From: Escherichia coli
GTDB taxonomy: Bacteria > Pseudomonadota > Gammaproteobacteria > Enterobacterales > Enterobacteriaceae
NCBI RefSeq assembly: GCF_003334765.1
Contig: NZ_QOWT01000055.1
Direction: 5' to 3' (one strand)
DNA length: 13,955 nucleotides
The notes beneath the pieces were generated by a model. It was not told where the DNA came from, ran no database searches, and worked only from the letters and a program-made list of their open reading frames with translations. Shown piece by piece: positions 11,522 to 11,584 of the stretch (within the stretch, counting starts at the first letter, position 1; each line of letters opens with the position of its first letter). Both the position numbers and the translations under genes were made by a program.

Positions 11522-11584
11522 ATGATGAATGACGGTAAGCAACAATCTACCTTTTTGTTTCACGATTACGCGCAATACCCCTGA
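11522..11584 (+). pseudogene. sbcB: sbcB (exonuclease I) 5' remnant: first 16 codons intact, then divergent sequence and a stop
   Basis: ATGATGAATGACGGTAAGCAACAATCTACCTTTTTGTTTCACGATTAC encodes MMNDGKQQSTFLFHDY, the SbcB N-terminus as I recall it. From 11570 the frame reads AQYP then TGA (11582-11584), and no SbcB-like ORF follows. Confidence 0.65.

Follow-up and report, generated by a model that had tools for sequence, protein, structure and literature searches.

The window analysed here is a 13,955-nucleotide stretch of the Escherichia coli contig NZ_QOWT01000055.1 in which sbcB, the gene encoding exonuclease I (ExoI), is interrupted after codon 16 by integrated phage DNA. We consider it highly likely that the junction is the left attachment site (attL) of an element of the type-2851 attachment class, present here as a 6.65-kb remnant, and that a chimeric sbcB is rebuilt at the right attachment site (attR). 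Upstream of the junction the K-12 gene order tmaR, yeeA, sbmC, dacD is kept, and the minus-strand gene dacD ends at 11319. The features at the junction are as follows.

11320..11521, plus strand: native intergenic region between dacD and sbcB (promoter side of sbcB), cut off from the sbcB body
11522..11584, plus strand: orphaned sbcB 5' fragment, consisting of native codons 1-16, four phage-derived codons (AQYP) and a TGA stop
11558..11570, plus strand: 13-bp attachment core TTTCACGATTACG (attL copy), spanning codons F13-H14-D15-Y16 and the first base of E17
11571..12096, no strand assigned: phage P' arm of a type-2851 attachment site, 94.8% identical to phage mEp234 beside its annotated phage attachment site (attP)
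11625..11648, plus strand: a tandem pair of 12-bp repeats TTTGGTACGCAA, which may be arm-type sites bound by the integrase

The junction and its attachment core

Positions 11522-11584 translate to MMNDGKQQSTFLFHDYAQYP followed by a stop at 11582-11584. Residues 1-16, encoded by 11522-11569, are identical to the N-terminus of exonuclease I (SbcB) from E. coli K-12. The match to K-12 extends to base 11570, and alignment to the K-12 locus detects no similarity past that point. From 11406 to 11570 the window is 99.4% identical over 165 nucleotides to the K-12 dacD-sbcB intergenic region and sbcB 5' end (L002 4641-4805). The original prediction, made from the letters of the window alone, is therefore borne out in placing phage DNA after codon 16 and in describing the native promoter side and first 16 codons as intact, with correct coordinates. 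It had also called everything beyond the junction AT-rich and phage-like. The first half of this description fails for 11571-12096, which has a GC content of about 43% and is a conserved phage P' arm. Only the region from about 12100 to 13650 is strongly AT-rich (27-34% GC), and it contains a membrane-protein gene that is not phage-like. A scan of the whole window against Rfam at gathering thresholds returned no RNA family.

The alignment to an intact sbcB locus that had been proposed as a check was run, and it places the junction at a 13-bp common core. We defined this core by aligning three sequences: the empty site of K-12, the window itself, and the far junction in BE2-5 (L001), a genome identical to window positions 11300-13955. 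The sequence TTTCACGATTACG is the same in the K-12 bacterial attachment site (attB; L002 4793-4805), in attL of the window (11558-11570) and in attR of eight lysogens, including BE2-5 (L001 26912-26924). In the window the core has host sequence on its left and foreign sequence on its right; at the far junction the two sides are swapped. The core is also the exact reverse complement of CGTAATCGTGAAA, the attP core reported for the Shiga toxin 2c (Stx2c) phage 2851 and the serotype-converting Shigella phage Sf101 (PMC4159516). Insertion of Sf101 in the 5' end of sbcB was confirmed by junction polymerase chain reaction (PCR), and integration of phage 2851 was reported as well (PMC4159516).

We reconstructed attP by joining the phage half of attR to the phage half of attL, and searched the resulting 855 nucleotides against phage genomes. 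Six free phages carry this sequence uninterrupted: mEp234 (98.8% identity over all 855 nucleotides), EC.P3 and E212 (97.9%), Sf101 (96.8%), and HK140 and HK544 (both matched over about 80% of its length). The depositors of mEp234 and HK544 annotated a 'prophage attachment site (type 2851)' in these genomes. The 94.8% match to mEp234 can be followed over 11541-12096, and the P' arm at 11571-12096 is in addition 92.9% identical to the junction of an O157 Stx2c prophage.

The tandem repeats within the P' arm share the motif TTGGTACRC. It occurs twice in the window, both times within 11625-11648, versus 0.18 occurrences expected, and two more copies are found in the P arm beside the integrase gene (int) at attR. 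These four are the only copies in the 42.7 kb of L001, where 0.69 would be expected. The integrase encoded in relatives has an Arm-DNA-bind_3 domain and a Phage_integrase domain, the latter being the tyrosine-recombinase catalytic domain. Because the repeats are found in both arms and the integrase has an arm-binding domain, TTTGGTACGCAA plausibly represents an arm-type integrase site. On every feature testable in the window, namely the identity of the core, insertion in the sbcB 5' end after dacD, and a P' arm homologous to free phages, the junction belongs to the type-2851 attachment class.

A chimeric sbcB at the far junction in relatives

In all eight lysogens inspected, which represent different backgrounds, the annotation of the far junction gives sbcB as a complete gene for a 474-amino acid exodeoxyribonuclease I and not as a pseudogene; its first 15 codons and upstream region are phage-derived. 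Integration does not leave the target gene incomplete in any of them. The phage arm directly left of the core reads ATG ACA G[G/A]C ACA GAT AA[A/G] CAA CCT ACC TTC CTC TTT CAC GAT TAC, and the surrogate start at attR is ...ATGACAG[G/A]CACAGATAAACAACCTACCTTCCTCTTTCACGATTACGAAACC. It is in frame with the sbcB body, so that MT[G/D]TDKQPTFLFHDY-ETFG... replaces MMNDGKQQSTFLFHDY-ETFG.... Where surrogate and native residues are identical, their codons differ synonymously (AAG/AAA, TTT/TTC, TTG/CTC). The surrogate start and its frame are kept in all phage and prophage copies seen. With 814.7 bits, for a cut-off of 260, the chimeric protein matches the NCBIfam ExoI equivalog, and its alignment to the crystallised enzyme covers residues 5-474.

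Asp15 and Glu17 of ExoI are conserved metal-binding catalytic residues of the active site (PMC3675492). Judged from these alignments, the phage targets the most constrained part of the sbcB 5' end and preserves the catalytic Asp and Glu. The original prediction expected the host to be deficient in exonuclease I, which is not supported, as a 474-amino acid gene is annotated as intact in eight of eight lysogens. An alternative that it offered in brackets, expression of sbcB from the far junction, fits the complete reading frame better, and it is from this frame that we infer expression.

We propose that site-specific recombination by a tyrosine integrase would join attP of a type-2851 phage to an attB formed by sbcB codons 13-17, with crossover within TTTCACGATTACG. 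The native promoter and codons 1-16 would remain to the left of the crossover in a 20-codon dead-end open reading frame (ORF), and the P' arm with its tandem repeats would lie to the right. To the left of its core, attP would bring its own ATG and 15 in-frame codons, yielding a full-length 474-amino acid sbcB at attR. At that junction int is divergent from sbcB with a spacer of 181 bp, and transcription of the chimeric gene would therefore have to start from phage-derived DNA within this spacer.

When 100,044 species-representative genomes were scanned for the exact pattern, two further attR-like junctions came to light, in Pantoea anthophila LMG 2558 (L023 4440-4850) and in a metagenome-assembled genome (MAG) of the Enterobacteriaceae (L022). 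The P arms of both are diverged (78% identity), with arm-type repeats present and int reduced to a fragment or truncated. In both, a TTG start is located exactly where the ATG of the E. coli phages sits, again giving 15 codons. The surrogate N-termini of Pantoea and the MAG are MKNDPGQPTFLFHDY and MNNSAQQPTFLFHDY (with TTG read as Met); they differ in residues 2-6, and each leads into an intact host-type sbcB of 475 amino acids. The phage-type arm is the only visible sbcB 5' end in Pantoea anthophila. A phage-derived 5' end appears, from the arrangement of these loci, to have become the resident sbcB start in the two genomes. A constant start position and 15-codon length, combined with variable residues 2-6, is what would be expected of a surrogate that is translated.

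Several points weigh against reconstitution of sbcB by the phage arm in the genome studied here. No sigma-70 consensus promoter scores above the scanner threshold in the 181-bp spacer. A lenient scan of the spacer yields only TGGACA-19-TATATT and TTAAAA-18-TATAAC, and the Shine-Dalgarno sequence of the chimeric gene is weak. Intact ORFs in lysogens may reflect recent integration rather than selection, and the similarity to the left of the core may partly reflect the needs of core-type integrase binding rather than coding constraint. Furthermore, the window ends at 13955, so that int, attR and the chimeric sbcB of this genome are read from the 73 relatives described below, and the whole window was not found in one piece among the top-ranked complete-genome matches listed. 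The searchable literature, which did not cover the primary description of phage 2851, yielded nothing on sbcB expression or ExoI activity in lysogens.

Alternatively, integration would be a knockout, leaving a lysogen that lacks exonuclease I because the native promoter and start are lost and the phage-derived 5' end is unexpressed or gives an inactive protein. In favor of such a knockout, the native promoter and codons 1-16 are physically parted from the rest of sbcB, no consensus promoter precedes the chimeric ORF, and its ribosome-binding site is poor. However, the native K-12 sbcB upstream region is equally weak on the same lenient scan and also has no strong consensus promoter, and the missing consensus is therefore uninformative on expression. 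The complete in-frame ORF with its catalytic Asp and Glu in eight of eight lysogens likewise argues against a knockout. So do the constant start position and 15-codon length across three diverged phage arms whose intervening residues vary, and the intact 475-amino acid ORF of Pantoea anthophila, which persists although int has been reduced to a fragment. We consider a knockout unlikely and rank reconstitution well above it on the strength of these comparisons. Hence sbcB is probably reconstituted at attR, and the chimeric gene would be transcribed and its product active.

The element carried at sbcB and its cargo gene

Two further features are located beyond the P' arm.

12550..13629, plus strand: cargo ('moron') gene with a predicted GT-C glycosyltransferase fold, encoding an AT-rich polytopic membrane protein of 359 amino acids
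13748..13955, minus strand: 3' part of a tail-fibre assembly gene that runs off the end of the window

The window stops 2.4 kb into the element. The complete genomes BE2-5 and TC_EC10 are 100% identical to window positions 11300-13955, and in these the distance from one core of the element to the other is 6,653 bp. Reading from the AT-rich cargo gene (12550-13629), the remnant consists of the tail-fibre assembly gene, a tail-fibre fragment, small hypothetical genes, yfdR/S/T (names from the RefSeq annotation), an AlpA/excisionase-like gene and int. In both genomes the remnant ends in int, which is followed by intact sbcB. The tail fiber assembly protein WP_000805577.1 is annotated on the identical BE2-5 sequence (L001 22449-23042, corresponding to window 13748-14341), and the yfdR/S/T-type early genes are 97.7% identical to those of Shigella phage SfV.

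The right-hand 2.66 kb of the window (11300-13955) is common to exactly 73 genomes, and at least 80% of the whole remnant in one place is likewise found in exactly 73. All 73 complete genomes with the cargo of the window have the 6.65-kb remnant only, without stx, and have int and attR with the same core. Because every genome that shares the right-hand part of the window holds the whole remnant, the genome of the window very probably carries the same 6.65-kb remnant, free of stx, and its attR would lie about 4.3 kb beyond position 13955. The absence of an stx gene from the window had been recorded in the original prediction and is confirmed. The defining genes of Stx2c-converting phages occur neither in the window nor in any relative that carries the same cargo, and the element is very probably not a lambdoid Stx phage.

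A full-length lambdoid prophage, possibly inducible or Stx-converting, of which the window would hold only the first 2.4 kb, is a very improbable alternative. The far end of the element does lie outside the window, and the same attL serves Stx2c prophages of about 55 kb as well as complete phages, mEp234 and Sf101 among them. However, all 73 complete genomes with this cargo have the 6.65-kb remnant, and the cargo gene has no counterpart in 50,697 phage records. Slighter still is the chance of a regulatory switch ('active lysogeny'), in which sbcB would be off while the element is integrated and would be restored by reversible excision. Excision is conceivable, as the remnant in relatives keeps int, an excisionase-like gene and both attachment sites; however, sbcB is complete at attR, leaving nothing for excision to restore.

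The cargo protein has no match in Pfam, NCBIfam, PHROGs or a sequence-profile search of the PDB, and the gene has no tblastn match in the phage records. A word-indexed protein search recovered only the protein itself and one cluster with 60% identity. Classification was obtained only by exhaustive HMMER search and structure prediction, which make the protein a candidate GT-C-fold membrane glycosyltransferase that may act in surface modification. This orphan gene beside the junction is overlooked by current annotation.

Across 11320-12549 (plus strand), the orphaned native sbcB promoter region faces into the element, and the cargo gene is encoded on that strand too. In an Stx2c prophage, nleG7 has the same orientation relative to the orphaned promoter. 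A scan of window positions 11250-13955 found no terminators, and promoter-like sites there are no more common than in shuffled sequences. Since no terminator-like site separates the promoter from the cargo gene, the host sbcB promoter could drive this gene by read-through.

To determine how often the site is occupied, we surveyed 5,426 complete E. coli genomes, counting attL as present where a 301-bp probe with the junction at its centre was matched to at least 80%. The sbcB site is uninterrupted (empty) in 4,841 of these; attL of the window type is present in 574 and a matching attR in 582. Occupied genomes include O157:H7 with an Stx2c prophage of about 55.5 kb. Among 346 O157 strains sbcB was occupied in 26.9% (PMC8309913), and in another survey 74 of 74 Stx2c phages were in sbcB (PMC4645166). 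The census and the O157 literature together corroborate the statement in the original prediction that sbcB is an integration site for Stx2c phages in O157. The junction is real and common. An assembly artefact or chance likeness to the SbcB N-terminus is rejected as next to impossible, given the identical junction in 574 independently assembled complete genomes and the 99.4% identity to K-12 over 165 nucleotides up to the core.

Elsewhere in the window, at about 3853, a segment of 2,854 bp that the closest complete genomes possess (TC_EC10, L006 12854-15707) has been cleanly deleted. Lost with it are a patatin-like phospholipase gene and two hypothetical genes, located downstream of a dynamin-family gene. 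An RdcB-family gene now reads in frame into the C-terminal portion of a DUF932 gene, which gives a fused ORF of 467 amino acids (3064-4467, plus strand). The deletion is not seen among the top-ranked complete genomes listed.

Relation to known phages and implications

Phage-borne replacement of a displaced gene end is familiar from phages that integrate within protein-coding genes, among them phage 21 and the element e14 at icd, and that carry a duplicate of the gene end that they displace. As in the element described here, their attP carries a surrogate coding segment and the target ORF stays complete. However, phage 21 and e14 replace a 3' end, while here the 5' end is replaced, so that the start codon and transcription signals must be supplied by the phage. 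Short cryptic prophages are also known, such as KplE1/CPS-53 of K-12, which lies at the argW tRNA gene with int and xis at opposite ends. It resembles the present element in being a defective remnant that keeps an integrase, an excisionase-like regulator, both attachment sites and yfdR/S/T-type genes. It differs in its argW site, in its integrase, and in having int and xis at opposite ends.

Phage 2851 and related Stx prophages of O157:H7 are integrated in sbcB (Strauch et al. 2008, cited in PMC4159516), as are the Stx2c phages WGPS4/6/8 and F349 (PMC4645166). Compared with these, the element found in relatives lacks stx, Q and the lysis, head and tail modules, and the predicted GT-C glycosyltransferase gene occupies the place at the attL end where Stx2c prophages have nleG7. 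Sf101 is similar in its int/attP region, which is 96.8% identical to the reconstructed attP, and carries the O-antigen-modifying conversion gene oacB (PMC4159516), as the window carries a predicted surface-glycan enzyme gene beside attL. In contrast, Sf101 is a complete Sf6-like podovirus encoding an acetyltransferase, whereas here the gene is an unannotated one with a predicted GT-C fold and the phage body is deleted. The phages mEp234, HK544, HK140, E212 and EC.P3 share the uninterrupted attP, comprising int, the P arm with repeats, the surrogate start, the core and the P' arm. They are free, complete, non-Stx lambdoid phage genomes, whereas the window holds the integrated left half only.

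The integration site, the core, the integrase family and the association with Stx2c and serotype-converting phages are already published, and attP is annotated in GenBank phage records. Stx2c phages in O157 are routinely typed by sbcB occupancy, and the junction itself is nothing new. An occupied sbcB should not be read as an sbcB null, as the phage arm rebuilds the frame including the codons for the catalytic Asp and Glu. Non-Stx remnants share the site in other lineages, and an 'occupied' PCR result therefore does not imply an Stx phage.

More tentatively, and with considerable doubt, type-2851 phages might rewire sbcB, placing it under a phage-encoded N-terminus and phage transcription signals in about 10.7% of complete E. 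coli genomes. If so, ExoI would be produced at other levels or under other regulation in lysogens than in non-lysogens, which could affect recombination, mutation rates or prophage induction.
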